A stretch of DNA of 45,855 bases, from contig CAYLKB010000001.1 of NCBI GenBank assembly GCA_964384165.1, positions 2,030 through 47,884 of the forward strand, in the 5' to 3' direction. Below, piece by piece: positions 9,262-36,826 of the stretch. Each line of letters opens with the position of its first letter. Position 1 is the first letter of the stretch. This stretch comes from an uncultured Methanosarcinales archaeon. Its GTDB lineage: Archaea > Nanobdellota > Nanobdellia > Woesearchaeales > UBA583. The notes beneath the pieces are model-generated. The model was not told where the DNA came from, did not search any database, and saw only the letters and a list, made by a program, of their open reading frames with translations. Both the position numbers and the translations under genes were made by a program.

Positions 9262-10184
9262 AAGGAAACAATAAATATCCATTTACAGAAAAATATAGAC
9301 CTAATTGTTGGGGTGATTTAGTTTATAAAGATAAGTGGAAATTAAAGAAAAACTTTGAACTAAATAGAATTACACATCTTTTAGTGTATTCAGAGAGTGG
9401 GGGAACTGGCAAGGGTTCAATTGCCAATATAATTAAAAATCAATATGAACAAACTTTTCTTGAAATTAATTGTGGAATTGATAATGGTAAAGATTATTTA
9501 TCAAAAAGAATTGTTGATATTCCTTCTATAATTAATTGGTATTCTGGGAGAAGAAAAGTTTTATTTATTGATGAAGTTAATAAATTATCTCCTGAAGCAT
9601 TTGAAACTTTAAAAGTTCCTCTTGAAAAATATGCTCATATTTGTATGGTAATAATTGCAACTAATAATATAAAAAAAATTCCACAACCAGTTTTATCAAG
9701 ATTTTATAAAATAGATTTATCAAATCCTGATAAAGATATGATTTTAGAAAGATTAAAATATATTTGTGAAGAAGAAAATGTCCAATATAATGAAGATATA
9801 TTAAGAAATATAATTAAAGATTATTATCCTTCAATTAGAGAAATGATAACACATATTCAAGTAAATCAAGATTATTTATGTGAGGAAGTAGTTAAAAGCA
9901 ATTCACTAACAAAAAAACAAGTTAATTATATTTGGAGAGGATTTATACAAGTAAGAAAAATAATTCCATTATTAAATCATTGTCAAAAGAATAAGTTGAA
10001 TTATTATGATGTTATCAAATCATTAGAAAGTGCAACAAGAATTAGAAATGTTGCTGGTGATAAAACAAATGATATTCAAAGATTAATTGTAGATTACAAA
10101 AACAAAATAATAAATGAACAAAATTCTGACAATTTAATGGAAGAATTTTTACATAAATTTGACAAAATTTTGTCAAAAAAATAA
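9255..10184 (+). CDS. RFC/clamp-loader-like AAA+ ATPase
   Basis: 309 aa. N-terminal EKYRPNCWGDLV (RFC box II-like), P-loop ESGGTGKGS (Lys followed by Gly rather than S/T), Walker B VLFIDEVNKL, sensor region IIATNNIKKIPQPVLSRF. Confidence 0.75.
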   Translation: MLKGNNKYPFTEKYRPNCWGDLVYKDKWKLKKNFELNRITHLLVYSESGGTGKGSIANIIKNQYEQTFLEINCGIDNGKDYLSKRIVDIPSIINWYSGRRKVLFIDEVNKLSPEAFETLKVPLEKYAHICMVIIATNNIKKIPQPVLSRFYKIDLSNPDKDMILERLKYICEEENVQYNEDILRNIIKDYYPSIREMITHIQVNQDYLCEEVVKSNSLTKKQVNYIWRGFIQVRKIIPLLNHCQKNKLNYYDVIKSLESATRIRNVAGDKTNDIQRLIVDYKNKIINEQNSDNLMEEFLHKFDKILSKK

Positions 10185-10684
10185 TTTATTTTTATCCAGC
10201 AGAAAGCTTTATTAACCTGTAAATCCATATAATATTATAATACCAAAACATATTTTTATTGTTGTTTTTTGGTCGTTTAGGTATTATAATCCAAAGTTGA
10301 TTATGGTTCAGATATGGGAAATCAAATCTTGTATCTCTATGGTAATTTATTGCCCCCTTTAATATGGTTTTTGGTATGTGGGTGTAAGAAGGTATCAATT
10401 TGAGAGGTGGTTTTTCCATATATCTGTGATTTTTTGGAAAGTAAGGACATAATTGGAAGTTTCTTATAATACAATAAACACGAAAAATAGGAGTAGAAAT
10501 GGACATAAAAATGATAAAAAATAGTGTAAAAATGGATAAAATTGGTCATAATCTCGTAACTCAATTTCAAAGTATGAAATTTGACTTTACATTATTTTCA
10601 AGAAAAGTAAAAAAAATTAGAAAAATCATCTAAAAATTTACAAATTTAAGACAAATTTTTGTATGAAACTTTACAAAATTACAG

Positions 10685-10816
10685 ATGAGTAAGATGGTAG
10701 AAGTATTAACACAAGAGGAATTTGATGAGCTAACACCAGTTCAACAAGAAGAGTATAGGAACAAATTAACTTATAATTTGGAAGAATTTCGAGATATGGG
10801 AATATATAATAATTGA
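10685..10816 (+). CDS. small acidic ORF (43 aa), hypothetical
   Basis: ATG..TGA read by hand (MSKMVEVLTQEEFDELTPVQQEEYRNKLTYNLEEFRDMGIYNN). Its stop overlaps the start region of the next gene. Below the ORF-track size cutoff. Confidence 0.25.
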   Translation: MSKMVEVLTQEEFDELTPVQQEEYRNKLTYNLEEFRDMGIYNN

Positions 10817-10818
10817 AA

Positions 10819-11082
10819 ATGGGAAATAATAACACAAATACAAAAGAAAATAATGAGTTAGATGAAAAATACATTTTCACATTATTTAATGAATTTGAAA
10901 ATTCAATGCAAGAAGGAAGTATCAAGATTTCAATTAAAGATGCAAAACCAATAGTTATAGAAAATACAATCATTTATGATTATATTAAAAATAATTTTGA
11001 GGGATACAAAAATGAATATCAAGTATTTAGACATTTCATTTATACATTAGTAGAAGAACAAAAAACATTGTCAATAGAATAA
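10819..11082 (+). CDS. hypothetical small protein, paralogue A
   Basis: The ATG at 10819 is preferred over the TTG at 10813. Shares EGSIKISIKDAKPIVIENT...Y...F with the next ORF. Confidence 0.5.
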   Translation: MGNNNTNTKENNELDEKYIFTLFNEFENSMQEGSIKISIKDAKPIVIENTIIYDYIKNNFEGYKNEYQVFRHFIYTLVEEQKTLSIE

Positions 11083-11085
11083 AAA

Positions 11086-11427
11086 ATGGGAGAAAGAACA
11101 TTAGAAGAAGAAAGTAGAGATTTAATCTACAAAGAATTAACACAAAATGAAAATTTTGTAGAAGATTTATTTAAAACTTATAAGACATCAAAAGAAGTTG
11201 TTGAAGATGGGAGTTTGATATTGAGAGTTAAAGATGCAAAACCAATTATCATCTCAACATCATTGATTGGAAAATACATCTCAAAGAATTGTAATGAAAT
11301 AAAAGAAGAGTGCGAGTATCACTTTTTTAAATTATTTTTAACCAATTTAATTGGAGAATGTGTTAGTATGAACATAGGTATAGAAAAAGCACTTGAAGAT
11401 GAAAATGAGTTCCAACAAGCTAAGTAA
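11086..11427 (+). CDS. hypothetical small protein, paralogue B
   Basis: DGSLILRVKDAKPIIISTS..KYISKN..EY.FFKLFLTNL aligns with the upstream ORF (tandem duplication). Confidence 0.5.
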   Translation: MGERTLEEESRDLIYKELTQNENFVEDLFKTYKTSKEVVEDGSLILRVKDAKPIIISTSLIGKYISKNCNEIKEECEYHFFKLFLTNLIGECVSMNIGIEKALEDENEFQQAK

Positions 11428-11539
11428 GAAGGAAATAAGGAGAAATGCTTATATTGGTATTGGATTGTTAGTTATTTTGATTATTTTATTTTATTTGAAC
11501 AACAATATATATAAATAACTAATATAATTATATTTTTAG

Positions 11540-12451
11540 ATGGTTATTTTTAAAGATACTAATGGTAGTTTAAAGAAAGTTAAAGAAATTGGTTTTAATT
11601 TAGAAGAAGAAATGCAAAACCTTGTTGGTAAGAATTTAGATACAATATTTGGTCTTGAATTTGTAAGACACGAATTCTTATTGGATAATTTAAGAATAGA
11701 TACACTTGCATTTAACAAAGAAAATAATTCTTTTGTAATAATTGAATATAAAAATAAACAAAATTTTAGTGTTATTGACCAAGGGTATGCCTACCTATCT
11801 TTAATGTTAAATAACAAAGCAGATTTTATTTTAGAATATAATGAACAAACTAATTCTAATTTAAAAAAAACAGATATAGATTGGTCACAATCAAGAGTTA
11901 TGTTTGTATCTCCTTCTTTCTCAAAATATCAACTTCAAGCAATCAATTTTAAAGACCTACCTTTTGAATTATGGGAAATTTCAAGATATGATAATAATTT
12001 AATTCAAATGAGTAAAATTAAGACTTCTGAAACAAGTGAAAGTATTAAAAAAGTATCAAAAGATATTGCTACAAACATTGTAGATAAAGAAGTTAAAGTA
12101 TATTCAGAAGAAGACCACTTACAAAATATGCCTGAAAAAATCAAGTCATTATATGAAGAATTGAAAAATCAAATATATACTATTGATAATAAAATCGAAC
12201 TTGAACCTAAAAAAATGTATTTAGCATTTAAATCTAATTCTAATTTTGTTGATGTAGTATTAAAAAAGAGTAAAATTAAGATACATCTTAATTTAAAAAA
12301 AGGACAATTAAAGAGTTCATCTGAATTAGTAAGAGATGTTTCAAATATTGGTCATTGGGGGAATGGAGATTATGAAGTTCAATTATCTAATGCAGAAGAT
12401 TTGCCAGTTGTATTGTCTTTAATTAAACAAAGTTATGATTTAAATAATTAA
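11540..12451 (+). CDS. PD-(D/E)XK (NucS-like) nuclease-fold domain fused to a DUF5655-like C-terminal domain
   Basis: 303 aa. LRIDTLAFNKENNSFVIIEYKNK..VIDQGYAYL matches the D...(I/V)E-x-K nuclease core. The C-terminal KKMYLAFKSNSNFVDVVLKKSKIKIHLNLKK is typical of DUF5655. Confidence 0.6.
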   Translation: MVIFKDTNGSLKKVKEIGFNLEEEMQNLVGKNLDTIFGLEFVRHEFLLDNLRIDTLAFNKENNSFVIIEYKNKQNFSVIDQGYAYLSLMLNNKADFILEYNEQTNSNLKKTDIDWSQSRVMFVSPSFSKYQLQAINFKDLPFELWEISRYDNNLIQMSKIKTSETSESIKKVSKDIATNIVDKEVKVYSEEDHLQNMPEKIKSLYEELKNQIYTIDNKIELEPKKMYLAFKSNSNFVDVVLKKSKIKIHLNLKKGQLKSSSELVRDVSNIGHWGNGDYEVQLSNAEDLPVVLSLIKQSYDLNN

Positions 12452-12452
12452 T

Positions 12453-14204
12453 TTAATCTTTATCATATTTTAAATTAACTTGAACTCCTAACAATTTACC
12501 TTCTTCTTTCTCATCACTTAAATATAACACAATATTCTCATTATTTTCTCCAAAAATTCTTTTTTGTTCTTCTTCGTTATATTCTTGCATAATAGTATCG
12601 TATTGGTCTTGATTTAATGAAGCAATATATTGTAAGTTATCATTAATAGTATTTTCATAAGCAAGTCTGAAAAGAATTGCTCTTTGTCTTGGGTCTATTT
12701 CACTAAATAATTTACTATCGTGAAAAAGAAAATTTATATTATGATTATTTCTCGCTTTAAGTAATGTAAAATCAAATGAGAATATTTTTACTGAATTAAC
12801 TCCACCAGAACTATCATCATCTAAACTTGCTTTTATTTCATATCTTAAAGTATTAATATTTTCATTTGGTATAATCTCAATCCCACCTGCTTTATCTTCA
12901 TAAAATTCTCTTGAAAATGACCTGAATAATTGTAAATTCCTTTCTAATATACTTTTTTTATTTTTTAAACTCTTATTTGCTTCAATATCTTGATTTTTAA
13001 ATTCTAATTTTATTTCATTTATTTTATCTTCATATTCTTCTTTCAACTCTTTATATTCTACCAATTTATCATATTGTTTCTTTAATGAATATAAATTATT
13101 ATTAATTACTTCTAATTTTTCAAAAGCACCATATTTTTTTAGGAATAATGATTTTTCATTATAATCTTGTTGAAGTGTAATCATTTGTTTATTTAAGTTC
13201 ATTAATTCTTTTGTTAATTTTTCTTCTTCTATATTTAATCTATATTTTCTATTCTCAATTATTTTGTTATGAAATAAATTAATCTCATCTAATTTTTTTG
13301 TAATTATTTCTCCAAAATGAACATTTGCTTCTTCGTAAACTTTTTTGATTTTTTTTAGATTAATATCAACCTTTAACTCTTTACTCTTTGCAATGTTTTT
13401 CAATGCATTTTCTAATAAAGAAATTTTATTGTTGATAATATGTATTTGAATTCCTATTTGTTTTGTTGTTTTTTCAATTTCATTATAATTTTCAGCAATT
13501 TTAAAATCTTTTTTTTCTTTTTCTAATTTATTAATTCTTTCTTTAATATCATATATACTAAAATTTAATGAATTATCTTGTTGAAAATGTTTTTTTAATA
13601 TCTCATCATTTTCTAAATTATTTAGATTAGTTTTTATTTTGTCCAATTCTCCTTTTAATTGAAATTTGCTATTTATTAAGGAAATGTTTAATCCAAGTAA
13701 ATAACCAGTATTAATTATAGGCGAGTGAGGATTCTTATCTTCATTTTTTACATAGAAATCATAAGAGTTGTAACTTTCTTTTGTAGGTCTAATAAATCTA
13801 CTAATTAAATTTCTAAAAGTTAAATATGGAATATTAGAAGTTATATCAAAAACTTTTTGTCCCATATACTCTCTAAATTTTGTTAAGGAGTATTCTTTGT
13901 CATTGATATAGATTTTCTTTTGATTATTTGCTTGTCTTTTAATTAAATATATTTCATTATTAATCTCAACTGTCAAATAAAACTCCCAATCATTTAATTT
14001 TTTCTTAATATCAGGTATTTCATTAGAACCTAAACAAAAATGAATTAAAGCAATTGTTAAGGATTTTCCAGTTCCATTATATGTTCCCTTTCCACCTTTT
14101 TTATCTGTATCTTTTTTTTTCGCTAAAATTATAGATAAACCTTTCTCATTAAACTCAATTGTTCTAAATGATTCTTTGTTTGCATCTAATTTAATTAATT
14201 TCAA
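12453..14204 (-). CDS. ABC-3C system SMC-like ABC ATPase (DUF2326-type)
   Basis: 583 aa. N-terminal Walker A YNGTGKSLT, a long central coiled coil, C-terminal signature-like DDSSGGVNSVK and Walker B NFLFHDS. Last gene of a 3-gene minus-strand operon with overlapping stop/start codons. Confidence 0.75.
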   Translation of the reverse strand: MKLIKLDANKESFRTIEFNEKGLSIILAKKKDTDKKGGKGTYNGTGKSLTIALIHFCLGSNEIPDIKKKLNDWEFYLTVEINNEIYLIKRQANNQKKIYINDKEYSLTKFREYMGQKVFDITSNIPYLTFRNLISRFIRPTKESYNSYDFYVKNEDKNPHSPIINTGYLLGLNISLINSKFQLKGELDKIKTNLNNLENDEILKKHFQQDNSLNFSIYDIKERINKLEKEKKDFKIAENYNEIEKTTKQIGIQIHIINNKISLLENALKNIAKSKELKVDINLKKIKKVYEEANVHFGEIITKKLDEINLFHNKIIENRKYRLNIEEEKLTKELMNLNKQMITLQQDYNEKSLFLKKYGAFEKLEVINNNLYSLKKQYDKLVEYKELKEEYEDKINEIKLEFKNQDIEANKSLKNKKSILERNLQLFRSFSREFYEDKAGGIEIIPNENINTLRYEIKASLDDDSSGGVNSVKIFSFDFTLLKARNNHNINFLFHDSKLFSEIDPRQRAILFRLAYENTINDNLQYIASLNQDQYDTIMQEYNEEEQKRIFGENNENIVLYLSDEKEEGKLLGVQVNLKYDKD

Positions 14205-14439
14205 CTTCTAATTCACCTTTTTTATTTAATTTAAGAACATTAATAGTATATAAAAAATCAATGCTTAATATAAATGTGTCAAAACTCAATGTTGAAGAAT
14301 ATTTTTTTCCTTTCATTTTTTCAACATCAATCCAAAGTTCATCAACATTTTTTGATTTCTTTTTTAATCTTTCAATTATTATTGAACCAATACCTATTAA
14401 GGATTCAGAATTTTTTATATGTTTTTCTGGAAAAATCAT
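14191..14439 (-). CDS. ABC-3C middle component (small wHTH-like adaptor)
   Basis: 82 aa. ATGA overlap with the upstream gene and a 14-nt overlap with the ATPase. Size, position and the LIGIGSIIIERL...SFDTFILSIDFLYTINVL pattern fit MC proteins. Confidence 0.6.
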   Translation of the reverse strand: MIFPEKHIKNSESLIGIGSIIIERLKKKSKNVDELWIDVEKMKGKKYSSTLSFDTFILSIDFLYTINVLKLNKKGELEVEIN

Positions 14440-15374
14440 TTTTTATTTTTAATTGGTGTTTCAAATATATCACAAGTTTCAAAATAATAGGACATTAATA
14501 CTAATGTAGCATTTAACATTGCTTGATTATTATCTGGAATAGATTTGTTTAGTATATCAAAAAATATCTGATTTTCATCTTTAAATTTCTTTTTTGCATT
14601 ATCATATAATTTTTTAAATTTCTTTTGTAAAATACTTCTATTATTTGAGTTAGATTCAAAATATGTTTCTATATTCCCTACTTGTAAATTAGCAGTTGAT
14701 AATAATGCATCAATATTAGGATTAAGATTGTTAAAGGTAATTTTTTCTTTAAAATCTGGTGCAATTGCTTTTCCTATAAAAGAAGTTTCAACTGGTTGTT
14801 TAAGTAAATAATTAATAACATCAATTAATGCAGACATACTTATATCATCATATAAATCTTCTTGATTAGGAATAAAACCAACTAATGATATAATATCTTG
14901 TTTTCCTAATGAAAAAAATACTTTTTGAATTTTTTCAGAATTAAAAATTTCAAAGTTTATTTTATTATGTTCTTTCTCTAATTCTAACAAACATTTGTGG
15001 ATTGGTTCAGGAACTCCTTCAAACTTATCATTAATAACAAATGAGAAATGTTTTATTTCACAACTTTTATCCCAAAATTTGAATAATCCCTTAAAATCAT
15101 CTTTTAACTTTTTTTTTGCATTAGAGAGTGCATTTATTAATGATTTAGGAGCATATACTTGATAATAATGTCCTTTGGTTTTGTTGAAACCATCATTTTT
15201 CCTATCTCCAATGTTCCCATATGCTTTAACAGCTTGAAAATCAGAATCAAACTTTAATAAAATTTTTACAAAAAAATCTTCAAATGATTGTCCATCTAAT
15301 TCAAATAAAAGATTTTTAAATTTTAATTCATAAAGATAAAACTCACTATTATTTAACATTATAAATATTTGCAA
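14436..15374 (-). CDS. ABC-3C effector component (N-terminal Mrr/REase-like region + helical C-terminal domain)
   Basis: 312 aa. The N-terminal FEDFFVKILL..VKAYGNIGDRKNDGF..YYQVYAP resembles Mrr-type PD-(D/E)xK N-termini. First gene of the operon. Confidence 0.55.
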   Translation of the reverse strand: MQIFIMLNNSEFYLYELKFKNLLFELDGQSFEDFFVKILLKFDSDFQAVKAYGNIGDRKNDGFNKTKGHYYQVYAPKSLINALSNAKKKLKDDFKGLFKFWDKSCEIKHFSFVINDKFEGVPEPIHKCLLELEKEHNKINFEIFNSEKIQKVFFSLGKQDIISLVGFIPNQEDLYDDISMSALIDVINYLLKQPVETSFIGKAIAPDFKEKITFNNLNPNIDALLSTANLQVGNIETYFESNSNNRSILQKKFKKLYDNAKKKFKDENQIFFDILNKSIPDNNQAMLNATLVLMSYYFETCDIFETPIKNKK

Positions 15375-15508
15375 ATTTATTTATATATAAAGTTTGTGCA
15401 ACAACTTGATAGAAATAACTATTTAGGGATAATTTTTGACACTTTTATGCCATCAGTTGTTATAAATAAATAACAAAGTATATAAAAAGGATTTATAGAA
15501 TAATTATT

Positions 15509-18292
15509 ATGGAATTAAATAAGCAACAATTAGATGCAATTCAATCTATTTCTCAACCAACTTTGATTGTTGCAGGTCCAGGAGCAGGAAAAACAAGAGT
15601 AATAGTTGAAAAAATTATTTATTTAGTTAAAGAAAAAAGATATAAACCTGAAAAAATATTTGTTTCAACTTTTACAGTAAAGGCATCAGATGAGTTAAAA
15701 CATAGATTAAGAAAAGAATTAGGAGATTCTGTTGAAAATATGCAAATAGGAACTTTTCATTCATTTTGTCAAACAATGCTTGAAACATATTCTAATGATA
15801 ATGGTTTTGGAACCTCATTTAGAGTTTTAGATGAAGAAGAGCAATATGCTTTAATTTCAAATTTTGCTAATTATGGTTATAGATATGGTCTAAAAGATAT
15901 AATTAAACCTGTTCAAGTTACTGATTTAATAAATATTTTTAATAAAATAACTGAAAATGCAATTGATTCTTATGAATTGATAGAATATGTTCAAGAAGAA
16001 CCTAATAATGATGATAAAGAAAAACGATTAAAGATTGCAGAAGCATATGATAAATATATAGGTCATTTGAAAGATTTACAATTAATGGATTTTGCAAACC
16101 TTCAAAAAGAATTTTTAAATATGATTGAAGATAATTCTGAAATATTAAGTGAAATAAAAAAATCATTTGATTATTATTTAATTGACGAATACCAAGATAC
16201 TAATCCTATACAAAATGAAATCTTAAAACTTCTTGTTAATCCTGAAAATAATATTACTTGTGTTGGTGATGAGGACCAATCAATTTATTCTTTTAGAAAT
16301 GCAACTGTTGAAAACTTTAGAAATTTTCATAATGATTTTAGTAATAGTAAAGAAATTAATTTAGAAACTAATTATCGTTCTACAAAAGATATTATTGATT
16401 TGAGTAATAATTTTATTAAAGAAAATAGAACTTATGAAAAAAAAATAGGTTCTAATAGAGATTCATTTAATAAACCATTAATCATAAAAGGAGTATCTTT
16501 TGAAGATGAAGCAGAGAAAGTAGTAAAATTTATTTTAAATTTAAAAGAAAATAATAAAATACAACATTTTGGAGATGTTGCTGTCCTGTTCAAAAGTGTA
16601 AGATATCACTCAAAAGAATATGTTGAAATGTTTAATAAATTTGAGATTCCATTTGAAATAAAAGGTGATGGAAGTTTGTTAAATGAAAATGAACTTAAAA
16701 CCATTATATATTTGATGGCTTATTTGAAAGACTTTACTCCAAATGAGAAGATAATTGAAAAATGGGATTATTTGGGTTATGAATTATTATTTAATAATGT
16801 ATTAAATCTTAATGAAAAATCAATTGAAATTATTAGACAAAATATTACCTCTGAAAATCTTGATGAATTATTCATATTAGATAAATTAAAAGATTTAAAT
16901 ATTGATAAGGAAGATATTAGAAAATTAATGACATTAAAAAAGACCAAAGAAATGGTTATCAAAAAAGATAAAGGAAAAGATAAATACTCTTTAACTGATT
17001 TATTTTATGATGTATTAAGAACAACTGGTTACTTGAATAGACTTTTTGAGAATACAGAAGATTTAATGAATGAGATTATGATTTCAAATTTGGGAGAATT
17101 GAGTTTAATTATAAATAAATATGAAAACAATGTTGGAAATAATTTCAAAAATTTCATTTATTATTTAACTTATTTACCTGAAGAAAAGAAGAGAGATTCT
17201 GCTTCTAACAACGATGGAAAATCTGTAAAAATTATGACAATTCATCAATCAAAAGGATTACAATTTCCAGTAGTAATTATGGGGACAGTTACTTTTGAGA
17301 GATATAACAAAAAAAGACCTAAATTTGGGGAATTTTTTGAAATACCAAATAAACTTATGATGTTAAAGAAGGAACCAAGTGAAGAAGAAGAAAAAAAAAG
17401 ATTATTTTATGTGGCAATGACAAGAGCTCAAGATTTATTAGTATTTGCAACAACAGATGGAACACAAGTCTCTCCATCAACATTTTTAACAAATGATATT
17501 GGAATTAATAATTTACAAAGTATTGAAAGTTTTAATAAGAAATTAGAAAAAACAGCTGATGAACCTGATAAAATTAAACAAATGACTTATTCAGCAGTTA
17601 ATAACTATTTATCTTGTCCATTTAGATTTAAATTAAATTATGAATATGGATTTCAAACTAAACCTACATATTTTCAAAATTATGGGATTGTTGTTCATAA
17701 TGTTCTTCATAAATTTCATATTGATATAAAAAATAATCAAATAGTTGAAAGAAAATTAAGACAAAGAGTAAGAGAGATAGTTATTTCTTGTTGGATGCCT
17801 GTGTCCAATAATTCATCAAAAGATGAAAAGTTAAGAGAACATTTAATTGAAGAACTTGTTAATTATTATCGTAATGTAAAAGATGATATAAAGGAAATAG
17901 TTGAAATTGAAAAACCATTTTCATATATTGATTCAAATATTGTAATTAAAGGTAGGTTAGATTTAATGATAAAAAATAAAGATGATAAAATCGAATTATG
18001 GGATTTTAAAGCAAGAAATGTAGAAAATATTGATGATACATTTGTTAAAGAACAATTAAAGATGTATAATATTGCTTTACAAAATCAATATAATATTGAT
18101 AACTTAATTGCTTATACATTTAAAGATAATATGAAAACTCCATTTGATAATAGCCAAAAAGAATTAGATAAAACAAAAAAGTTATTAAATAATATCAAAG
18201 AAAGTATAATTAAGAACAAATTTGAAAGGAATTTAAACTCAAAATTCTGTAATTATTGCGATTATAGATTCCTATGTTATAAAAATGGTTGA
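15509..18292 (+). CDS. UvrD/PcrA-type SF1 helicase fused to a Cas4/AddB-like PD-(D/E)XK Fe-S nuclease
   Basis: 927 aa. Helicase motifs AGPGAGKT, IDEYQDTN, VGDEDQSIYSFRNA, TNYRS, TIHQSKGLQFPVV, LFYVAMTRAQ. C-terminal CPFRF...LWDFKAR...QLKMYN...CNYCDYRFLC, i.e. a nuclease core flanked by Cys residues. Confidence 0.85.
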   Translation: MELNKQQLDAIQSISQPTLIVAGPGAGKTRVIVEKIIYLVKEKRYKPEKIFVSTFTVKASDELKHRLRKELGDSVENMQIGTFHSFCQTMLETYSNDNGFGTSFRVLDEEEQYALISNFANYGYRYGLKDIIKPVQVTDLINIFNKITENAIDSYELIEYVQEEPNNDDKEKRLKIAEAYDKYIGHLKDLQLMDFANLQKEFLNMIEDNSEILSEIKKSFDYYLIDEYQDTNPIQNEILKLLVNPENNITCVGDEDQSIYSFRNATVENFRNFHNDFSNSKEINLETNYRSTKDIIDLSNNFIKENRTYEKKIGSNRDSFNKPLIIKGVSFEDEAEKVVKFILNLKENNKIQHFGDVAVLFKSVRYHSKEYVEMFNKFEIPFEIKGDGSLLNENELKTIIYLMAYLKDFTPNEKIIEKWDYLGYELLFNNVLNLNEKSIEIIRQNITSENLDELFILDKLKDLNIDKEDIRKLMTLKKTKEMVIKKDKGKDKYSLTDLFYDVLRTTGYLNRLFENTEDLMNEIMISNLGELSLIINKYENNVGNNFKNFIYYLTYLPEEKKRDSASNNDGKSVKIMTIHQSKGLQFPVVIMGTVTFERYNKKRPKFGEFFEIPNKLMMLKKEPSEEEEKKRLFYVAMTRAQDLLVFATTDGTQVSPSTFLTNDIGINNLQSIESFNKKLEKTADEPDKIKQMTYSAVNNYLSCPFRFKLNYEYGFQTKPTYFQNYGIVVHNVLHKFHIDIKNNQIVERKLRQRVREIVISCWMPVSNNSSKDEKLREHLIEELVNYYRNVKDDIKEIVEIEKPFSYIDSNIVIKGRLDLMIKNKDDKIELWDFKARNVENIDDTFVKEQLKMYNIALQNQYNIDNLIAYTFKDNMKTPFDNSQKELDKTKKLLNNIKESIIKNKFERNLNSKFCNYCDYRFLCYKNG

Positions 18293-19931
18293 AAAAAAAA
18301 TAAAATATAAGGGAGGGTTAGAATTAAATTGGATAAATAAACATCAATCTGTCTATTACGAATATGATGAAAATGGTAATCCTGGAGAGCCAATATGGGT
18401 TGATAAAAATGATATTAGAGTTTCAGAACCAAGAATATTAAAACATATAGAGGACTTTGGAGATACTTCAAATTTAAAGGAACCATTAGATAATGCTTTA
18501 ATAAAAGGAGATAACTTATTAGGATTAAGAACTCTTGTAGAAGAATTCAAAAATAGACCTGAAAAAAATAAAGTAAAATGTGTTTACATAGACCCACCAT
18601 ATAATACAGGTAATGATGATTTTATATACGATGATAATTTAAAACATTCTGAATGGTTAACAATGATGAGAGATAGGTTATTGTTAATTAAAAAATTAAT
18701 GAGAAATGATGGAGTTATATTTATTTCAATTGATGATAATGAAAATCATAGGTTGAGGCTTTTATGTGATGAGATTTTTGGTCCTGAAAATTTTATTGCT
18801 AATATTGTATGGAAAAAAAGAAGTGGTGGTGGGTATACTAATGCTTTACTATCTACAAATCACGAATATGTGTTGGTTTATGCAAAAAATAGAATTAATG
18901 TAGTTTTTAATGATAAAGAAAAAAATATTAATGAACTTAAAAAAAAATATAATTGTGAAGATGAAAAAGGAATTTATAAAAGAAGAGATTTAAGAAAATC
19001 AGGTTCAGCAGATTTAAGAGTTGACAGACCAACAATGTTTTATGAGATTAATGCTCCAGATGATTCAATTATTATTCCTATTCGTCCAAAAGATAAAAAA
19101 GAAGGAAGGTGGTGTGTTGGTAAAAATAAATTTTATGAATTAAAAGATAACAATGATATTGAATTTGTAAAAATAAAAGGACATTGGAAAGTTTATTTAA
19201 AAGAAAGACCATATAAAGAAGAGGGAGTAATGAAGAAAGAAAAATATGAAACTATTTGGGATAATGTAGCATTAAATACACAAGCAAGAAATGAAATTAA
19301 AAATATTTTCCCAGAAAAAGAAAATCCCTTTGATTATCCTAAACCAATAAAATTAATAAAATTTATTTTAAATATTGCAACTAATGAGGGAGATTTAATA
19401 TTAGATTCTTTTGCAGGTTCAGGTTCAACAGGTCAGAGTATATTCGAAATGAATGAAATCACAAAAATACATAGAAAATTTATATTAATTGAATTACAGT
19501 CTAAAATTGCAGAAGAAATTACCAAAGAAAGATTGAATAGGTATATTTTAAATAAAAAGAATGGGTTTGGTTTTAGGTATTATCAACTTGGAGAATCATT
19601 AATTAAAGATAATGATATGAATTGGGATTTAACTTATGAAGAAATAGCAAAAGCATTGTTTTTTACATTTGATTTTTCCTTTGATAATAAAATAAACGAA
19701 AATACTTATTATGGACATAATGAAAAAGCAACTGCTTTATGTATTGTATCTAAAAAATTAAACATATTAAATAAAAACCAAATCGAAGAATTTATTTCAA
19801 AAATAAAAAATAAAAGAGAAAAGTTAGTTATCTATACAAATAATGGTATAGCAATTAAATCAAATGATTTAGATGATTCAATTGTAATTAAAAAAATACC
19901 TGAATCAATATTGAGGAAATATAAATTATAA
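18285..19931 (+). CDS. mod: Type III R-M Mod subunit (beta-class N6-adenine/N4-cytosine DNA methyltransferase)
   Basis: 548 aa. Motif IV VYIDPPYNTGND precedes motif I DSFAGSGSTGQ (beta permutation). The ATG overlaps the helicase stop (ATGGTTGA). Confidence 0.85.
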   Translation: MVEKKIKYKGGLELNWINKHQSVYYEYDENGNPGEPIWVDKNDIRVSEPRILKHIEDFGDTSNLKEPLDNALIKGDNLLGLRTLVEEFKNRPEKNKVKCVYIDPPYNTGNDDFIYDDNLKHSEWLTMMRDRLLLIKKLMRNDGVIFISIDDNENHRLRLLCDEIFGPENFIANIVWKKRSGGGYTNALLSTNHEYVLVYAKNRINVVFNDKEKNINELKKKYNCEDEKGIYKRRDLRKSGSADLRVDRPTMFYEINAPDDSIIIPIRPKDKKEGRWCVGKNKFYELKDNNDIEFVKIKGHWKVYLKERPYKEEGVMKKEKYETIWDNVALNTQARNEIKNIFPEKENPFDYPKPIKLIKFILNIATNEGDLILDSFAGSGSTGQSIFEMNEITKIHRKFILIELQSKIAEEITKERLNRYILNKKNGFGFRYYQLGESLIKDNDMNWDLTYEEIAKALFFTFDFSFDNKINENTYYGHNEKATALCIVSKKLNILNKNQIEEFISKIKNKREKLVIYTNNGIAIKSNDLDDSIVIKKIPESILRKYKL

Positions 19932-19933
19932 AA

Positions 19934-22624
19934 ATGGAATATTACAAAGAGTTAATTAAAGATGAGCAGTATAAAAAAGCATTGGAAAATATTGATGAAG
20001 AATTAATAAAAGATTTACAAGAAGGTATTAATTCAAAATATTCATTTAGAGAATATCAAAAAAAAGCACTTAATGTATTTCATTTTTTTAATAAAATCTC
20101 AAAAGATTATACTTTCAAATATAAATTATATGATGAAAAATATGACAATATTCCCTTTTATGGTTTTGAAATGGCAACAGGAAGTGGAAAAACAATTTTA
20201 CTTGGTTCAAATATATTATATCTAAATAAATATAATAAAATCAAAAACTTTTTAATTATAACTCCTAATAGAACAATATATGAAAAAACAATTAAAAATT
20301 TTGATTTAAATGATATTCATTGTATTTTTTCTAATAACTTGCCCTTTAAATTTAATTTAGTAACAGGAGATAATTATCAAGATAAAAGTTCTAATTATGA
20401 AGAAGATGCTGATTTTAATATATTTGTATTTAATATTAGTAAATTCTTTGAGAAAAATAGTTCTATAATGAACATTGATAAACCTTGGGAAGCAGGTTAT
20501 TGGAAACACCCTAAAACAAACGAAGTAGTTTCATTTAGAGAATATTTACAATTAATAGATTTAGCAATATTAACAGATGAATCCCATCACTATCAAAATT
20601 TTAAAGTTGGAAATACAAATAAGTCGTCAGGAGATATAATCGTTGACCTACAACCAAAACTTGTAATTGAGTATACAGCAACTGCTTTATCTGATGAGAA
20701 AGAGAGAAGAAATCAAAAAATAGTATTCAAATATTCTATCGAAGATTATATTAATGAAGGTTTTGGGAAAAAAGTTAGAGCTTTAGGTATTGATAGTAAA
20801 TTTCAACAAGGATTGACAGAATATGATGATAATGGAAATAAATTAGATGACAAAGTTGAAATAATTGAACAAGATGAAACTAAATTAGTTAGAGCATTAA
20901 TTGTTCATTTATTGAAAAAGAAAGCATTAAAGGATACTATTAAACCAGTTTTATTAATTAGAGGAAGAAGGATTGAGCATCTTGAAAATATATATAATTA
21001 TTTAAAAGAAGTGTCTTACAATGAAGATTTAATTAAAACAACTTATCAACATATGATTAAAGATAAAGAATTCGAAATAAATAAATTAATTAGTGAAGAA
21101 TTAACTATTGAAGAAATAATTTTAGGTATTGAAGAACTTATTGATAAAACTTTTACAATACATAGTGGAAATAGGGACCAAGTTGAAGTTGCTTCTAAAT
21201 TTAATGATATAGAAAATAATGACCAAGAGGTCGTTATACAATATGATATTGCAACAGAAGGTTGGAATATTGATAATGTTTATACGATTTTAATTTTAAG
21301 TAATACTCCTGGGAGTATCAAAACTTATATTAAACAATTAACTGGAAGAGGATTGAGATTATATAAAGAGAAAAGAGAATTTGATAACAATGAAAATTTA
21401 ATGTTGCAACAAAAGGAATTATTACATATGATTTGTGAGAAAGGTAGTAATTTTAAAAAGTTTATTGATGAAGTAAGACAAGATTTAGGTTTGAGTGTTG
21501 GAAATTTTTCAGGAGATAATGAAGAAAAAGAAATTTTAAATGATATGACTTTATCAATAGAAGACATTAGTAAGAATAAAGATGTAAAAGTTCCAAAAAT
21601 TATAATAAATAATGAGTTAGAAATAAATAATATTGATGATTTTTTAAATAGAATTAGTTATGAAAATTTAAGAATTGAAAATTTTTATGATGAGGTTTCA
21701 AATTCTTCATATAGTGATGGTTTTGAAATATTATTAAATGAACAAATTGAACAAGAAGAAAGAAGTTTTCAAGAAGGAGATGAAACAAAAGAAAAGTCTG
21801 ATTCAAATTATAAAATGGCAACATTTTATTTAACTGAACCTGAAAGAAGTAAAATTATTAAAAATATAATATCAGGTCAAAATGTTTTACCTTCAACAAT
21901 AGAAATTAATGAGAGATTAAGAGAAATAATTCTAAAAATTGAAGAACATAGTTTTTATTATAAAGAAAAAGATGGGTATAATGCAAGAAATGATGCAGTA
22001 AAGAAATTTATAAATACTTTATCAAGATACATAATTAGAAGAGTTGATACTTATTATCAATCTAAATGTGTAATAAATAAATATGAATCTATATTTGAGA
22101 TTTTCCACAAATATAAATTTAAAGTAATAATAGATGAAGAAAATCCAAGAATTATAGATAAACAAACTTCTATAAGTAGATGGTTAAGTTCATTTGGAGC
22201 ACAAAAAAGTAAAATAAAGGATTATTATATTACAAATTATAATAAATCATATTATTTGTATAATAATTTTGAAAGTTCTCACGAATTAAAGGTGGCAACT
22301 ATACTTGATAATATTGAAGAAATTGACTTTTGGATTAATGCTAAAAATCAATATTATATGGATTATGGTTTAGGAAAAAGATTCTATCCAGATTTTTTCA
22401 TAAAATTAAGAAATTCTAATAAAATATATGTTGTTGAAGTAAAAGGTGGTCATTTACAAGAAACTACAAGGTCAAAAGATAAAATTCAAGCATTGAAAGA
22501 AGTTAATTTAATTGAGCCAAATAAATTTGAAGGATTATGGTTAGAAGATAAAACAGTTGATAAAATGTATGAACAAACAATTAATACATTTAATCAGTTT
22601 AAAAATTATAATGATTTAAAGTAA
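19934..22624 (+). CDS. res: Type III R-M Res subunit (SF2 helicase + C-terminal PD-(D/E)XK endonuclease)
   Basis: 896 aa. Walker A MATGSGKT, DEAH-like TDESHHY, C-terminal YPDFFIKL...VVEVKG nuclease motif. Starts 2 nt after the mod stop. Confidence 0.85.
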   Translation: MEYYKELIKDEQYKKALENIDEELIKDLQEGINSKYSFREYQKKALNVFHFFNKISKDYTFKYKLYDEKYDNIPFYGFEMATGSGKTILLGSNILYLNKYNKIKNFLIITPNRTIYEKTIKNFDLNDIHCIFSNNLPFKFNLVTGDNYQDKSSNYEEDADFNIFVFNISKFFEKNSSIMNIDKPWEAGYWKHPKTNEVVSFREYLQLIDLAILTDESHHYQNFKVGNTNKSSGDIIVDLQPKLVIEYTATALSDEKERRNQKIVFKYSIEDYINEGFGKKVRALGIDSKFQQGLTEYDDNGNKLDDKVEIIEQDETKLVRALIVHLLKKKALKDTIKPVLLIRGRRIEHLENIYNYLKEVSYNEDLIKTTYQHMIKDKEFEINKLISEELTIEEIILGIEELIDKTFTIHSGNRDQVEVASKFNDIENNDQEVVIQYDIATEGWNIDNVYTILILSNTPGSIKTYIKQLTGRGLRLYKEKREFDNNENLMLQQKELLHMICEKGSNFKKFIDEVRQDLGLSVGNFSGDNEEKEILNDMTLSIEDISKNKDVKVPKIIINNELEINNIDDFLNRISYENLRIENFYDEVSNSSYSDGFEILLNEQIEQEERSFQEGDETKEKSDSNYKMATFYLTEPERSKIIKNIISGQNVLPSTIEINERLREIILKIEEHSFYYKEKDGYNARNDAVKKFINTLSRYIIRRVDTYYQSKCVINKYESIFEIFHKYKFKVIIDEENPRIIDKQTSISRWLSSFGAQKSKIKDYYITNYNKSYYLYNNFESSHELKVATILDNIEEIDFWINAKNQYYMDYGLGKRFYPDFFIKLRNSNKIYVVEVKGGHLQETTRSKDKIQALKEVNLIEPNKFEGLWLEDKTVDKMYEQTINTFNQFKNYNDLK

Positions 22625-22668: not shown

Positions 22669-24351
22669 ATGAGAAATCAAACTGAAACAATAAGTAAACT
22701 TATTAGATTTATTAATAATGAAGAAGAAGAGGGTGGTCTTTGGTTACCAAAGATACAAAGAAAATTTGTTTGGAGTGAAAAACAAATTGAAACTTTATTT
22801 GATTCAATTATGAGAGAGTATCCAATTAGTTCCCTATTAATTTGGAAAACTAAATCAGAAATTGATACAAGAAAGTTTATTGCTTCTTATAATTCTAAAA
22901 TAAAAATTACTGATTTATATATTGAAAATAATAATAAAATCAAAAATTTAGTTTTAGATGGACAACAAAGATTACAAAGTTTATATATTGCTTTAAAAGG
23001 AAGTTATGAAAACAAAGAATTATATTTTAATATATTAAGTGGGGTTTCCAATGATGTAGATGAATTAAAATATGAATTCAAATTTTTTGATAAAAAAAAT
23101 AAAAAAATAAGTGGAAATTGGATTAAATTCAAAGATATAATCAATTCAAGTAAACAATATGACGATATTGCAGAAGATATAATTGACAATTTTAAGAATA
23201 AAAAATTGGAAAAAGATGAAAAAAAAATTATAAGAAACAATATTGCAAGAATTATTAAGTTATTTAAAACAGATGAAATTATTCCCTTTCAAAAATTAGA
23301 TAGTGTTGAAGATAATAGTATTTACGATGAAAATGATATCGTGGAAGTATTTATTAGAGCAAATTCAGGTGGAACTAAATTAGAAAAATCTGATTTATTA
23401 TTTTCCTTATTAACTGCTAATTGGTCAGAAGCAGAAGAAAATATTGAATTATTACAAGAAGAATTAAATTCAGATGGGTTTAAATTTTCAAGAGATTTTA
23501 TTCTTAAAACTTGTTTAACATTATTAGATACAGGGGCTAAATATGATGTAAAAAAATTTAGAAATAAAGAAAATCTTAAAAAAATTGAAGAACAATGGGA
23601 AGGCATTAGTAATGCAATAAAAGATGTTAAAGATTTTTTAGTTACTGAAACTTATGTTAGAACAGATAAAGCAATGCCAAGTTATTTGCCATTAATACCA
23701 TTAATATATTTCAGGTTTAAATATAGAAATGAATGGGATAAAAGAATAAAAAATCTTGATTTATGGTTACTTAAAGTATTAGTAACTGGTGCATTTAGTG
23801 GAAGTCCTGATGGATTAATAGATAAGATTATTAAGAAAATTAATGAAAATAAAACCTTTATTATTGATGATATTAATGAAATCATCATTAATTCAGGTAG
23901 GAATATAAATATAACAAAAGATTTGATTAAGAATACTTATTATGGATATAAAGATTTGTATTTATTATTTAATTTATGGTATTCTCAACATAAATTCAAT
24001 TTCAAACCATCATTTAAAGGAAATGAATTACAAATTGACCATATTTTTCCTCAATCAAAATTAAAAGAAATTAAAGAATTAAATGAAAAAACTGGCAGAC
24101 ACATTATGAGATATAATGTTGGTGAAAGAGATGAAATTGCAAATTGTATGTTATTAACTCAAAAAGAAAATGGAGCATCAGGTAAAACTGATAAACTTCC
24201 TGAAGTTTGGTTTGATGATAAAGATGATGAATATTTAGAAATGCATTTAATTCCAAAAGATAAAAAATTATGGAAACTAAAAAATTTCGAAGAATTTAAA
24301 GAAGAAAGAACTAAATTATTAATTGAAGAATTTCTAAAACTTTTAAATTAA
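22669..24351 (+). CDS. GmrSD-family Type IV (modification-dependent) restriction enzyme, DUF262 + DUF1524
   Basis: 560 aa. N-terminal ParB-like DUF262 (IQRKFVWSEKQIETLFDSI..YPISSLLIW, DGQQRL) and C-terminal His-Me DUF1524 (LQIDHIFPQS ... N). Confidence 0.85.
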   Translation: MRNQTETISKLIRFINNEEEEGGLWLPKIQRKFVWSEKQIETLFDSIMREYPISSLLIWKTKSEIDTRKFIASYNSKIKITDLYIENNNKIKNLVLDGQQRLQSLYIALKGSYENKELYFNILSGVSNDVDELKYEFKFFDKKNKKISGNWIKFKDIINSSKQYDDIAEDIIDNFKNKKLEKDEKKIIRNNIARIIKLFKTDEIIPFQKLDSVEDNSIYDENDIVEVFIRANSGGTKLEKSDLLFSLLTANWSEAEENIELLQEELNSDGFKFSRDFILKTCLTLLDTGAKYDVKKFRNKENLKKIEEQWEGISNAIKDVKDFLVTETYVRTDKAMPSYLPLIPLIYFRFKYRNEWDKRIKNLDLWLLKVLVTGAFSGSPDGLIDKIIKKINENKTFIIDDINEIIINSGRNINITKDLIKNTYYGYKDLYLLFNLWYSQHKFNFKPSFKGNELQIDHIFPQSKLKEIKELNEKTGRHIMRYNVGERDEIANCMLLTQKENGASGKTDKLPEVWFDDKDDEYLEMHLIPKDKKLWKLKNFEEFKEERTKLLIEEFLKLLN

Positions 24352-25820
24352 ATAACTAATTTTTCCAATTCTTCAACTAATTTTACCATTGCAAGTGTAT
24401 CCATTTGACAATACGACAATAAATGATTTCTTATATTTTCAATTTGTTCATCATCAATATATTTAAATATTGAATAAAAATATTCTAAACTCGCATCTCC
24501 ACCATTACCAATTTCCAATTCAGTATAACTCATATTAGGAACTAATGTAGGTAAGACATACTTAATTGATGTTGAACCACATTGAGCATTGTTATAATAC
24601 CAAAAGTTTCTAAAAATATCCCAAAGGTCTACAAATCTTGGCAAGATTGATTTAATCCAATCCTTATATTCAGGCAAAAACTCTCCAACTTCTTTTGTTA
24701 CACTCTTTTCAAAACCTTGATTATAAACTACAATTGAACCAACATCATCAATATTTTCTTTAAGTTTTTTAATAAATTCAGGTCTTGGGTCTTTGTTTCC
24801 TTCTGCCAAAAATTCAATATGTTCTAATTCTCCATTAGGTTCTCTTTGAATATGTAATGAAAATTGGAAAGGAACTCTTTGATAAGGTTTAAATCCATCA
24901 TACATAGGTATAGCACAATTATAAGTTTCATAGTCTAAAAAATATAAAGGATATTCCAAATTTCCCAAGAAATCTTTAATCATATTCTTTTCAATATGTA
25001 AACAATTGTTTTTAGCACAAGTATATTGGACTGATTGTTTTTCACTTAACTTAAATCTTAATGGAATATCTTTTATCTCCATTACATCAAGTTCATCAAA
25101 TAAAGTCATTGCTTTTGTTTTACCTCTTGTTAAATCAAATACATTGTTCTCTGGAAGAAAATTCCAACACAAACTTGGATTAGGACAATCTTTTGGATTA
25201 TCACAATATTCTCCAAATCTTGCTTTATTATATACATTATAATTAATTAAATCAAGTAAACCTTTAATTTTTCTATCAATACCATCATATACTTCTTTTA
25301 CACCTTCACTAACATCTACTTTAACAAATAACTCATTAATATCAATATTTCCATTTCTTACATATTGATTATTTAAATGAAGAATATTATAACTCTTAAT
25401 CTTTAATCCACAATTTTCATAGATATATTTTTGAAATGCCAAGTCTTCAATATGTTCAGGTTTTATTGATGAACTTGCTTTAACTTCAATCACTTCCCAA
25501 CTATCTTTACCAATAGGAACTAAAATGTCTGGTCTTGTAAAACAATTATTAAACATAAAACCAGCTTCAAAGATTGGAACTCTATTTGACAATACTTTAT
25601 TTGTTTCTTCAATAACTGGTTTGAATTTAATTCCTTTGATTTCAATTCCATTCGAAAAAAGTTGTTTTGCATATTCTCCTACAATATGTCCTTCATCAAT
25701 TCTATGTAATGCTTGGTTATTTAAACCATTAAGTTTTTCAGGTTCATATATTTGTGTCCACAAAGAAAGAGGACAAGTAAGACCAAGTTTATATTTAGAT
25801 TTCGTTAAAATTACATTCAT
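24348..25820 (-). CDS. DUF2779 protein (Cas4-like PD-(D/E)XK N-terminal domain + RNase H-like C-terminal domain)
   Basis: 490 aa. N-terminal LTKSKYKLGLTCPLSLW, nuclease core PDILVP..WEVIEVKAS, central YFLDYETYNCAIPMYDGFKPYQRVPFQFSLH, all characteristic of DUF2779. Its stop overlaps the GmrSD stop. Confidence 0.75.
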   Translation of the reverse strand: MNVILTKSKYKLGLTCPLSLWTQIYEPEKLNGLNNQALHRIDEGHIVGEYAKQLFSNGIEIKGIKFKPVIEETNKVLSNRVPIFEAGFMFNNCFTRPDILVPIGKDSWEVIEVKASSSIKPEHIEDLAFQKYIYENCGLKIKSYNILHLNNQYVRNGNIDINELFVKVDVSEGVKEVYDGIDRKIKGLLDLINYNVYNKARFGEYCDNPKDCPNPSLCWNFLPENNVFDLTRGKTKAMTLFDELDVMEIKDIPLRFKLSEKQSVQYTCAKNNCLHIEKNMIKDFLGNLEYPLYFLDYETYNCAIPMYDGFKPYQRVPFQFSLHIQREPNGELEHIEFLAEGNKDPRPEFIKKLKENIDDVGSIVVYNQGFEKSVTKEVGEFLPEYKDWIKSILPRFVDLWDIFRNFWYYNNAQCGSTSIKYVLPTLVPNMSYTELEIGNGGDASLEYFYSIFKYIDDEQIENIRNHLLSYCQMDTLAMVKLVEELEKLVI

Positions 25821-28496: not shown

Positions 28497-29303
28497 ATGG
28501 TAATTTATTGTAATAAATGTGGTCAAGAAAATCCTGATGATAGTAAATATTGTTCTAAATGTGGAACTTTAATCAAGGATTATGATAAAGATGAAGTTCA
28601 AACCAAAGAAGAAAAGGTTGAAATAAAAGAGAAAGATAACAAATCTAAAAGTAAAACAATTAATTATGTTGCTTATGGTGTTATTGTAATTTGTGTTTTA
28701 ATAATCTTATTAGTTCCTACTAAAACAGTTTATGAAACAAAACAAGAAAGTTATACATCATATGAAAGTTACATTATTCAAGAACCTTATCTAAAAGAAG
28801 AAACATATACTGAAAGAGAACCATACATTAGTAATGATTGTAATATTATTTATTCTAATGAAATTGATTTTAATAGTATGTGGCAAAAATTACATACTTC
28901 ACAATCAGAATGGGTTGAAATAGGTTGTATGATAACAAATCTTGAAGAATATGAGGTTACATATGATTATATTATTGAAGCAAGAAATCAAGATGATGCA
29001 ATTGAAGACACTCTACAAAGATATGGAGAAATAACATTATCTCCTAAATCCAGCACATCAGTTGGAGAGGTTTCTTATCAATTTCCATTAGATGTAAGTA
29101 GTGGTTATGTTGCAGATTGTATAGTAACTCCAAATGAAATTGAAACTTGTGAAGAAACAACAAGATATAGAAATGTTGAAAAGGAAAGGTCAGTTACAGC
29201 ATACAAAGATGTAACAAAACAAAGACCAGTTACAAAGTATAGAGATGTTGAGATTTCTAAAAAAGTTAATTGGATATTAGGTATAAGTTTATTTTGGAAT
29301 TAA
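28497..29303 (+). CDS. zinc-ribbon, single-pass membrane protein
   Basis: 268 aa. N-terminal CNKCGQENPDDSKYCSKCG zinc ribbon, then a TM segment (VAYGVIVICVLIILLV) and an extracytoplasmic domain. Confidence 0.6.
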   Translation: MVIYCNKCGQENPDDSKYCSKCGTLIKDYDKDEVQTKEEKVEIKEKDNKSKSKTINYVAYGVIVICVLIILLVPTKTVYETKQESYTSYESYIIQEPYLKEETYTEREPYISNDCNIIYSNEIDFNSMWQKLHTSQSEWVEIGCMITNLEEYEVTYDYIIEARNQDDAIEDTLQRYGEITLSPKSSTSVGEVSYQFPLDVSSGYVADCIVTPNEIETCEETTRYRNVEKERSVTAYKDVTKQRPVTKYRDVEISKKVNWILGISLFWN

Positions 29304-29305
29304 AA

Positions 29306-36710: not shown

Positions 36711-36826
36711 TACTAAATATAATAATAGTATATTTAAAAGAGTTAGCAGACATAAATAAAAGTTTTTAATGGTCTATTAATAATGATTTTAGTTAGTTTA
36801 TAAGAATTATTTCGTTTAAACAAAAA

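Follow-up and report, generated by a model that had tools for sequence, protein, structure and literature searches.

A UvrD-Cas4 helicase-nuclease gene coupled to a Type III restriction-modification pair in the defence island of a DPANN archaeon

Background

Hallmarks of Type III restriction-modification (R-M) systems are ATP-dependent cleavage, two inversely oriented unmethylated sites and a cut about 25–27 bp from the site, with modification of one strand only. Genes for such a system, mod and res, directly follow a gene for a UvrD/PcrA-like helicase fused to a Cas4-type nuclease in the DNA analysed here, a 45,855-nt stretch of contig CAYLKB010000001.1 (assembly GCA_964384165.1), hereafter called the window; the three-gene locus occupies positions 15509–22624. 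Fusions of this kind, termed UvrD-Cas4, were described by Hudaiberdiev et al. (2017, BMC Evol Biol 17:232, PMC5704561, Fig. 6) as a monophyletic group present in bacteria and mesophilic archaea. Their commonest neighbourhood consists of Type III Mod and Res genes, a second context is formed by Dcm and Vsr, and stand-alone copies also occur (PMC5704561). The fusion was proposed to be ancillary to defence and was predicted to promote recombination, by analogy with the RecB and AddB nuclease domains; most bacteria that carry it also encode RecB (PMC5704561).

In the literature, including a 2025 review of restriction-modification biology, we found neither an experimental follow-up of this association nor a named system. 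The association itself has been known since 2017, and the window locus is a further, fairly divergent example of the described pattern. Comparison of gene neighbourhoods makes the following additions to it: i) modules have been shuffled, helicases of two clades being combined with Mod-Res pairs of two lineages, ii) linkage is strict within one Res subfamily and not in its sister clade from the candidate phyla radiation (CPR), and iii) in Methanosalsum zhilinae the Mod gene is disrupted by an insertion sequence.

Gene organization and junctions

The three open reading frames (ORFs) are co-directional on the + strand in the order helicase-nuclease (15509–18292, 927 amino acids [aa]), mod (18285–19931, 548 aa) and res (19934–22624, 896 aa). 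The TGA stop codon of the helicase-nuclease gene and the ATG start codon of mod lie within an 8-nt overlap (ATGGTTGA, 18285–18292), and the ATG of res begins 2 nt past the TAA of mod, both as reported in an earlier reading made from the sequence alone (the sequence-only reading). The overlapping mod start is supported, since homologous Mod proteins align from aa 3–8 of the window Mod onward. The spacing between helicase and mod genes ranges from −11 to +6 nt in seven of the nine loci compared, and in the remaining two (L081 and L083) small ORFs sit between them. A promoter and terminator scan of the window detected no terminator, and promoter-like sites were fewer than in shuffled sequence, the consensus used being bacterial and uninformative for AT-rich archaeal DNA.

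The inserted ORFs (12779–13201 in L081 and 6192–7295 in L083) include in both loci one of 140 aa, the two copies sharing 35% identity; none of the inserted ORFs occurs in the window. The L083 copy has a weak match to the EVE domain, and L083 also contains a 111-aa ORF with a faint match to RE_TaqI.

The helicase-nuclease

Pfam, a PDB sequence search and an AlphaFold2 (AF2) model identify the first gene product as a UvrD/PcrA-like SF1A helicase with a C-terminal RecB/Cas4-type nuclease. Matches to Pfam UvrD-helicase (1.3e-74) and UvrD_C (8e-36) cover the helicase, and a match to PDDEXK_1 (9.8e-24) marks the PD-(D/E)XK nuclease domain (aa 692–923, 17582–18277); Cas_Cas4 is borderline (23.2 bits against a cutoff of 22.7). 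The motor motifs (15572–17428) comprise Walker A (AGPGAGKT, aa 22–29, 15572–15595), DEYQD (aa 226–230, 16184–16198), motif III (VGDEDQSIY, aa 252–260, 16262–16288), motif V (TIHQSKG, aa 577–583, 17237–17257) and motif VI (VAMTRA, aa 635–640, 17411–17428). In an alignment with 26 homologues, Q7, Walker A, DEYQD, motif III and R639 of motif VI are invariant, as are the nuclease residues D818, D832-x-K834, Q849 and Y853 (QxxxY, aa 849–853) and the cysteines C703 and C914-x2-C917-x5-C923, which form the AddB/Cas4 pattern. From this cysteine pattern alone, the nuclease domain is predicted to hold an Fe-S cluster, as in AddB and Cas4.

The closest proteins of known structure in sequence are PcrA, UvrD and Rep (PcrA 2.7e-60), with AddA (4e-23), AdnB, GajB and RecB much weaker. 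The AF2 model is confident (pLDDT 87), and its best full-length fold match is AddA (4cej_A, 2.8e-34); UvrD/PcrA (matching the motor) and then RecB, AdnA/B and AddB come next. The protein falls far under every NCBIfam equivalog cutoff for PcrA, UvrD, AddA, RecB and Cas4 (e.g. AddA_Gpos, 154 bits against 708; RecB, 137 against 696; Cas4 TIGR00372, 37.7 against 65). It has an AddA/RecB-type architecture with AddB/Cas4 cysteines, yet is outside those families. The sequence-only reading had recognized an SF1 helicase with UvrD motifs and a Cas4/AddB-type Fe-S nuclease, which agrees with the motifs, catalytic residues and cysteines found; its further description of the enzyme as AddA/AddB-like holds for the architecture but not for the family, to which the motor, nearest to PcrA/UvrD, and the NCBIfam scores do not assign it.

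Of the 120 best homologues listed, nearly all have the helicase-plus-nuclease layout and most are about 900–950 aa long, a few being truncated or without the nuclease domain. The nearest database relative is 49% identical. PADLOC v2 has no dedicated model for the protein, which matches only its generic GajB and DRT-helicase profiles. In the protein collection searched, the window Res (P0121) and threonyl-tRNA synthetase (ThrRS; P0241) are present at 100% identity and the helicase-nuclease is not present; the source record may contain a different call for its gene.

The Mod and Res proteins

The second gene encodes a Type III Mod, a beta-class DNA methyltransferase of the N6-adenine type, on the evidence of PADLOC (MTase_III, 1.6e-92 over the full length), Pfam (N6_N4_Mtase, 7.8e-40) and the PDB sequence search (6k0w Mod, 2.6e-46; EcoP15I Mod, 4.3e-45). 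Its DPPY motif (aa 103–106, 18591–18602) is ahead of FAGSGS (aa 376–381, 19410–19427), with a variable target-recognition region between them. BLAST alignments to homologues split around this middle region, whose variation fits a target-recognition domain.

The third gene encodes a Type III Res, an SF2 helicase-like ATPase identified by Pfam (ResIII, 3.6e-17), PADLOC (REase_III, 3.5e-11, the model covering only aa 33–504) and an AF2 model. Motifs I (TGSGKT, 20177–20194), II (DESHH of the DExH type, 20576–20590), III (TAT) and VI (QLTGRGLR, 21335–21358) are present, together with a C-terminal PD..ExK endonuclease motif (PDF...EVK, aa 819–837, 22388–22444). Their key residues are invariant in 43 homologues; within the endonuclease motif this applies to P819, D820 and K837, and the four closest relatives all keep E835. 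The protein is divergent and found no sequence match in PDB or NCBIfam. Its model (pLDDT 82) has EcoP15I Res as the top Foldseek match (4zcf_C, 1.4e-17; next match 6e-11), with low TM-scores (0.34/0.45), so that the domain arrangement is not closely superposable. As judged from their motifs, Mod and Res are a complete Type III R-M pair on their own.

Conservation of the gene order

Mod and res lie directly downstream of the helicase gene in 10 of the 12 distinct helicase-family loci sampled, the window counted. Look-ups seeded with the helicase found this arrangement at six of eight loci (L081, from Woesearchaeota; L083; L085; L086; L087, from Methanosarcina sp. 1.H.A.2.2; and L096, from Methanosalsum zhilinae), and all sampled helicases at least 41% identical to the window protein have mod-res downstream. 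The other two genes, both with products 38% identical to the window protein (L088, from Methanobacterium lacus, and L097, from Methanothermobacter tenebrarum), stand alone in a housekeeping setting with a DUF1232 neighbour and near endonuclease III and tRNA synthetase genes. Look-ups seeded with Res added L092, L093 and L094 (Res 34–41% identical), which are all the new Res relatives in this identity range with enough upstream sequence, and in all three a helicase-nuclease gene is immediately upstream of mod. L095, from a CPR bacterium (Res 30% identical), has a two-gene mod-res system without the helicase. The Res-seeded metagenome scan yielded only 4 loci, 2 of which were too short upstream to inform. 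Thirteen further helicase/Res pairs in the two homologue lists match in the size of their longest contig, a same-contig heuristic. No Res relatives were found in a scan of viral contigs, so that carriage of the module by known viral contigs has no support.

Neither the 72 ordinary bacterial UvrD loci used as a control nor 8 distantly related full-length fusions of bacteria have genes of these Mod/Res families beside them, the control profiles being family-specific, so that very different Type III genes could escape them. The control loci were at least 80 bacterial loci from a contig scan with the helicase alignment that picked generic UvrD motifs, with no archaeal orthologues among the matches listed. 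Gene order across these genomes indicates that the linkage of the helicase-nuclease to mod-res is not due to chance and is that of a conserved unit, a positive outcome of the synteny survey that the sequence-only reading had proposed.

The partners within this unit vary. L093 and L094 combine the window's Mod-Res subfamily (0.22–0.36 of the self-score) with a distant helicase-nuclease clade (0.12), whereas L086, L087 and L096 combine a helicase near that of the window (0.37) with an unrelated Mod-Res family (0.04), the members of which are longer than those of the window (Mod about 1020 aa; Res about 1055 aa, with ResIII and SWI2_SNF2). Helicases of two distant clades are thus found in mixed combinations with two unrelated Mod-Res lineages, so that the combination was assembled or exchanged more than once. 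Such repeated re-pairing argues for selection on the pairing, beyond common descent, and makes neither an accidental adjacency nor a complex of tightly co-adapted partners likely.

The loci also show the following. In L096 (10780–14856; Methanosalsum zhilinae DSM 4017, CP002101.1) the insertion of a DDE transposase splits Mod, which also carries a frameshift close to its start, the ORFs of the helicase-nuclease and Res still being full-length; this copy of the module, from a cultured strain, seems to be decaying or inactivated. A convergent RadC/UPF0758 gene directly follows res in L093 (10699–11379) and L094 (10672–11325), both of the distant helicase clade. In L085 (4035–9970) a second UvrD-PDDEXK protein (1065 aa, 26% identical to that of the window) is encoded upstream of the module and flanked by GmrSD_N and HD-domain proteins; it could be a partner helicase-nuclease or belong to a separate system.

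Accidental adjacency would be the case if the helicase-nuclease were a self-contained defence or repair gene that merely clusters with R-M genes and has no functional coupling to them. The window is dense in defence genes (PDC-S18, PDC-M68A/B, GmrSD/HEC-05 and DUF2779), and the fusion also occurs alone, beside WYL and cas3 genes (L009) and with Dcm-Vsr. Against these points, order and orientation are constant at 10 loci, with genes mostly overlapping or nearly abutting, the pairing recurs over two helicase clades and two Mod-Res families, and the adjacency is absent from the 72 control UvrD loci. We therefore regard an independent neighbour as improbable.

The opposite possibility is that the helicase-nuclease is an integral effector, with Mod-Res acting as the sensor of sequence and methylation, or as the loader, and the helicase-nuclease as the required enzyme of degradation, comparable to Cas3 with Cascade or DdmD with DdmE. 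The locus would then stand for a separate class of Type III-like systems with three components. In favour of this, a helicase-nuclease accompanies every Res of the window subfamily that is at least 34% identical and has readable upstream sequence, start and stop codons overlap, and the helicase gene is first in the operon at all linked loci. However, the PD..ExK and ATPase motifs of Res are invariant in 43 homologues, so that selection still maintains Res as a nuclease; in the next Res clade (30% identity) the system has only the two genes; and the same helicase clade occurs with an unrelated Mod-Res family, which is hard to square with a tightly co-adapted complex. Taken together these points make an obligate effector unlikely. 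We would also rate as doubtful the related proposal that Mod-Res is a targeting module that marks or opens unmethylated DNA and hands it over to the helicase-nuclease, that restriction in vivo is helicase-dependent and that the re-pairing reflects a general docking principle. The sequence-only reading had called the helicase an obligatory first gene, which is too strong a term in view of the complete nuclease in Res, the CPR pair without a helicase and the stand-alone orthologues of the Methanobacteriales.

Proposed function

The interpretation that we favour, and to which we give about an even chance, is that the three genes form an operon in which EcoP15I-like Mod and Res are preceded by an accessory helicase-nuclease that serves as a portable restriction booster rather than an essential subunit. 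It starts from the observed domain identities, the intact catalytic motifs in the three proteins, the tight gene coupling and the synteny with shuffling. The accessory enzyme is predicted from its motifs to combine a UvrD/PcrA-type 3'-5' motor with an Fe-S nuclease of the RecB/Cas4 type. Three steps would follow: 1) Mod would methylate its asymmetric site on host DNA. 2) Mod-Res would find its sites on an unmethylated invader, switch to sliding when triggered by ATP and make a double-strand break, a step modelled on the established biology of EcoP15I and EcoP1I. 3) The helicase-nuclease would load at the break or nick and unwind and degrade the invader DNA, which would prevent its repair, recombination or religation. 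The enzyme would in this way play, within the operon, the role that RecBCD/AddAB plays after restriction in bacteria. The sequence-only reading had likewise suggested a break followed by degradation, which is plausible. In this model the sequence of events, the DNA substrate and any physical interaction of the helicase-nuclease with Mod-Res are inferred. The Dcm-Vsr context also fits such a role, that of a processor acting after a site-specific incision.

Several points weigh against a restriction booster. Since Res is an intact nuclease and related two-gene systems exist, restriction is probably independent of the helicase. The presence of RecB in most fusion-bearing bacteria speaks against the idea that the enzyme simply makes up for the lack of RecBCD. 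The stand-alone Methanobacteriales orthologues in housekeeping contexts indicate that the helicase-nuclease has a function independent of R-M. The synteny counts come from a dozen loci and not from an exhaustive census, the mechanism assigned to the helicase-nuclease is a matter of deduction, and its discrimination between the DNA ends of invader and host is likewise hypothetical.

The stand-alone genes bear also on the proposal that the helicase-nuclease protects the host, by resecting accidental R-M breaks in the host chromosome (arising, for example, on transfer of the island or on loss of methylation), starting recombinational repair and so lowering the cost of carriage. The recombination-promoting role predicted in 2017 (PMC5704561) agrees with this, as do the housekeeping neighbourhoods of the stand-alone orthologues, beside endonuclease III and tRNA synthetase genes, and the position of the window locus between integrase genes, which makes it probably mobile. 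The need for such protection is not obvious, though, given that hemimethylated host DNA is rarely cut by Type III enzymes; moreover, the loci sit in defence islands, and the locus has no linked recombinase gene. Host protection is thus rather unlikely. A reading of the helicase as a housekeeping enzyme only was rejected for the window clade, whose linkage to mod-res is both conserved and reshuffled; it fits the Methanobacteriales orthologues. In both L088 (10817–11239) and L097 (10730–11155) the stand-alone gene is followed by one for a conserved DUF1232 protein of about 140 aa, which may be a partner in a role of the helicase-nuclease that is not linked to R-M.

Comparison with known systems

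Like the UvrD-Cas4 proteins described in 2017, the window protein joins a UvrD-like SF1 helicase and a pfam12705 Cas4-like nuclease in one polypeptide and has Type III Mod/Res neighbours, and the range (bacteria and mesophilic archaea) and the conclusion of an ancillary role in defence are likewise the same. It differs in coming from a DPANN archaeon and in being only 49% identical to its nearest database relative. The locus shares with EcoP15I and EcoP1I the DPPY...FxGxG order in Mod, the SF2 ATPase motifs and C-terminal PD..ExK of Res, and co-oriented genes with mod ahead of res, but it has a third, translationally coupled gene upstream and a Res that is very divergent in sequence.

As in AddAB, AdnAB and RecBCD, a UvrD-like SF1 motor is followed by a RecB-family nuclease, with the four-cysteine pattern of AddB, and with AddA as the best full-length fold match. 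Processive resection of DNA ends and regulation by Chi are hallmarks of that group. RecBCD degrades DNA after restriction in E. coli, and by analogy the role proposed for the window enzyme would be that of RecBCD on restricted DNA. In contrast to those complexes, the window enzyme is a single 927-aa polypeptide with a motor nearer to PcrA/UvrD than to AddA or RecB; the active motor and the Fe-S nuclease are in one chain, whereas in AddAB they are split between AddA and AddB. Among the scanned window ORFs there is no second UvrD-like or RecC/RecD-like gene, and L085 alone has a second UvrD-PDDEXK gene nearby.

A site- or structure-specific first component followed by a processive or Cas4-family nuclease may, by analogy, be common to the window locus and Cascade-Cas3, DdmDE, Druantia III DruH-DruE and pAgo-ACE1. 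In Druantia III the first nuclease licenses the helicase-nuclease (DruH-DruE), and a comparable two-step logic has been documented for pAgo with a Cas4-family partner. The protein families of these systems are unrelated to those of the window, where Res, the first component, is a full nuclease in its own right.

Other assignments were rejected. GajB models match the helicase core (7.7e-64), but no GajA-like gene is adjacent and GajB has no such nuclease domain, which excludes Gabija. A CRISPR-associated Cas4 was discarded because TIGR00372 is under its cutoff and neither a CRISPR array nor cas genes occur in the window. For DISARM and BREX, partner genes are missing and scores are under cutoff.

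Host and genomic setting

The window has a G+C content of about 23%. The nearest named relative of its ThrRS, annotated as Nanoarchaeota, shares 72% identity, and other named relatives (50–72% identical) are annotated as Nanoarchaeota or Woesearchaeota. These relatives and the archaeal-type integrases point to a Nanoarchaeota/Woesearchaeota-like DPANN archaeon as the host, in line with the reduced archaeal host supposed in the sequence-only reading. The two integrase genes (Phage_integr_3; 5622–6536 and 35403–36710) and a tRNA-Ser(GGA) gene (36826–36910) bracket about 30 kb including the defence island, which suggests one or two integrated elements; since the integrase genes flank the region, the locus is probably mobile. 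No second copy of the tRNA-Ser 3' end, as an att-like repeat, was found in the window. In L098, a relative, the gene order around ThrRS is not kept on the side of the island and so does not define the island borders.

The operon lies in a dense defence island. Ahead of it are genes for PDC-S18/DUF5655 (11540–12451; 8e-126), PDC-M68B/DUF2326 (12453–14204; −) and PDC-M68A with ABC-3C CTD10 (14436–15374; −). Downstream, 44 nt from res, is GmrSD/HEC-05, a Type IV restriction enzyme (22669–24351; 1e-108), followed by a convergent gene for a DUF2779 protein with weak Cas4-like N-terminal matches (24348–25820; −). A DUF5655 (PDC-S18-like) gene is also directly upstream of the helicase-nuclease in L081 (9112–9981); in the window the corresponding gene is 3 kb upstream, with the PDC-M68 pair between, and its product is 24% identical to the L081 protein. 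The DUF5655 gene may be a recurrent neighbour.

Also inside the putative mobile region are an unannotated four-gene cluster on the + strand (7971–10184), which ends in a gene for an AAA+ clamp-loader-like ATPase (9255–10184), and two unannotated genes for zinc-ribbon proteins (28497–29303 and 29270–30916), the second of which contains internal low-complexity repeats at the DNA level.

The search for CRISPR arrays and cas genes, negative in the window, is relevant to two further suggestions: that the motor strips long-lived sliding Res-Mod complexes off DNA as roadblocks, or that the nuclease trims fragments into spacer precursors. UvrD, Rep and PcrA do displace proteins from DNA, Cas4-family nucleases process prespacers, and one distant bacterial fusion (L009) adjoins a type I-U-like cas locus. 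On the other side, protein displacement has no need of the strictly conserved nuclease domain, the window lacks a CRISPR array and cas genes, and CRISPR-Cas is mostly absent from DPANN archaea. We consider either role highly improbable. The L009 locus (9965–21380), from a metagenome-assembled genome of Pyrinomonadaceae, places its UvrD-PDDEXK fusion (26% identity) in another defence context, with a TnsA-like ORF, a WYL/WCX regulator, a Cas3-like helicase-HD protein and Cas_GSU0053 as neighbours, and resembles a type I-U/I-G cas locus.

Conclusion

The loci compared here provide concrete cases with defined catalytic residues, including one in the cultured Methanosarcina sp. 1.H.A.2.2. If the helicase-nuclease truly works with Type III enzymes, restriction systems can bring their own clean-up enzyme, which would matter most for archaea and small-genome symbionts without RecBCD or AddAB. 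It would also extend a theme of immunity in which one component recognizes the target and a motor-nuclease destroys it, and the significance would grow if restriction proved to be helicase-dependent.

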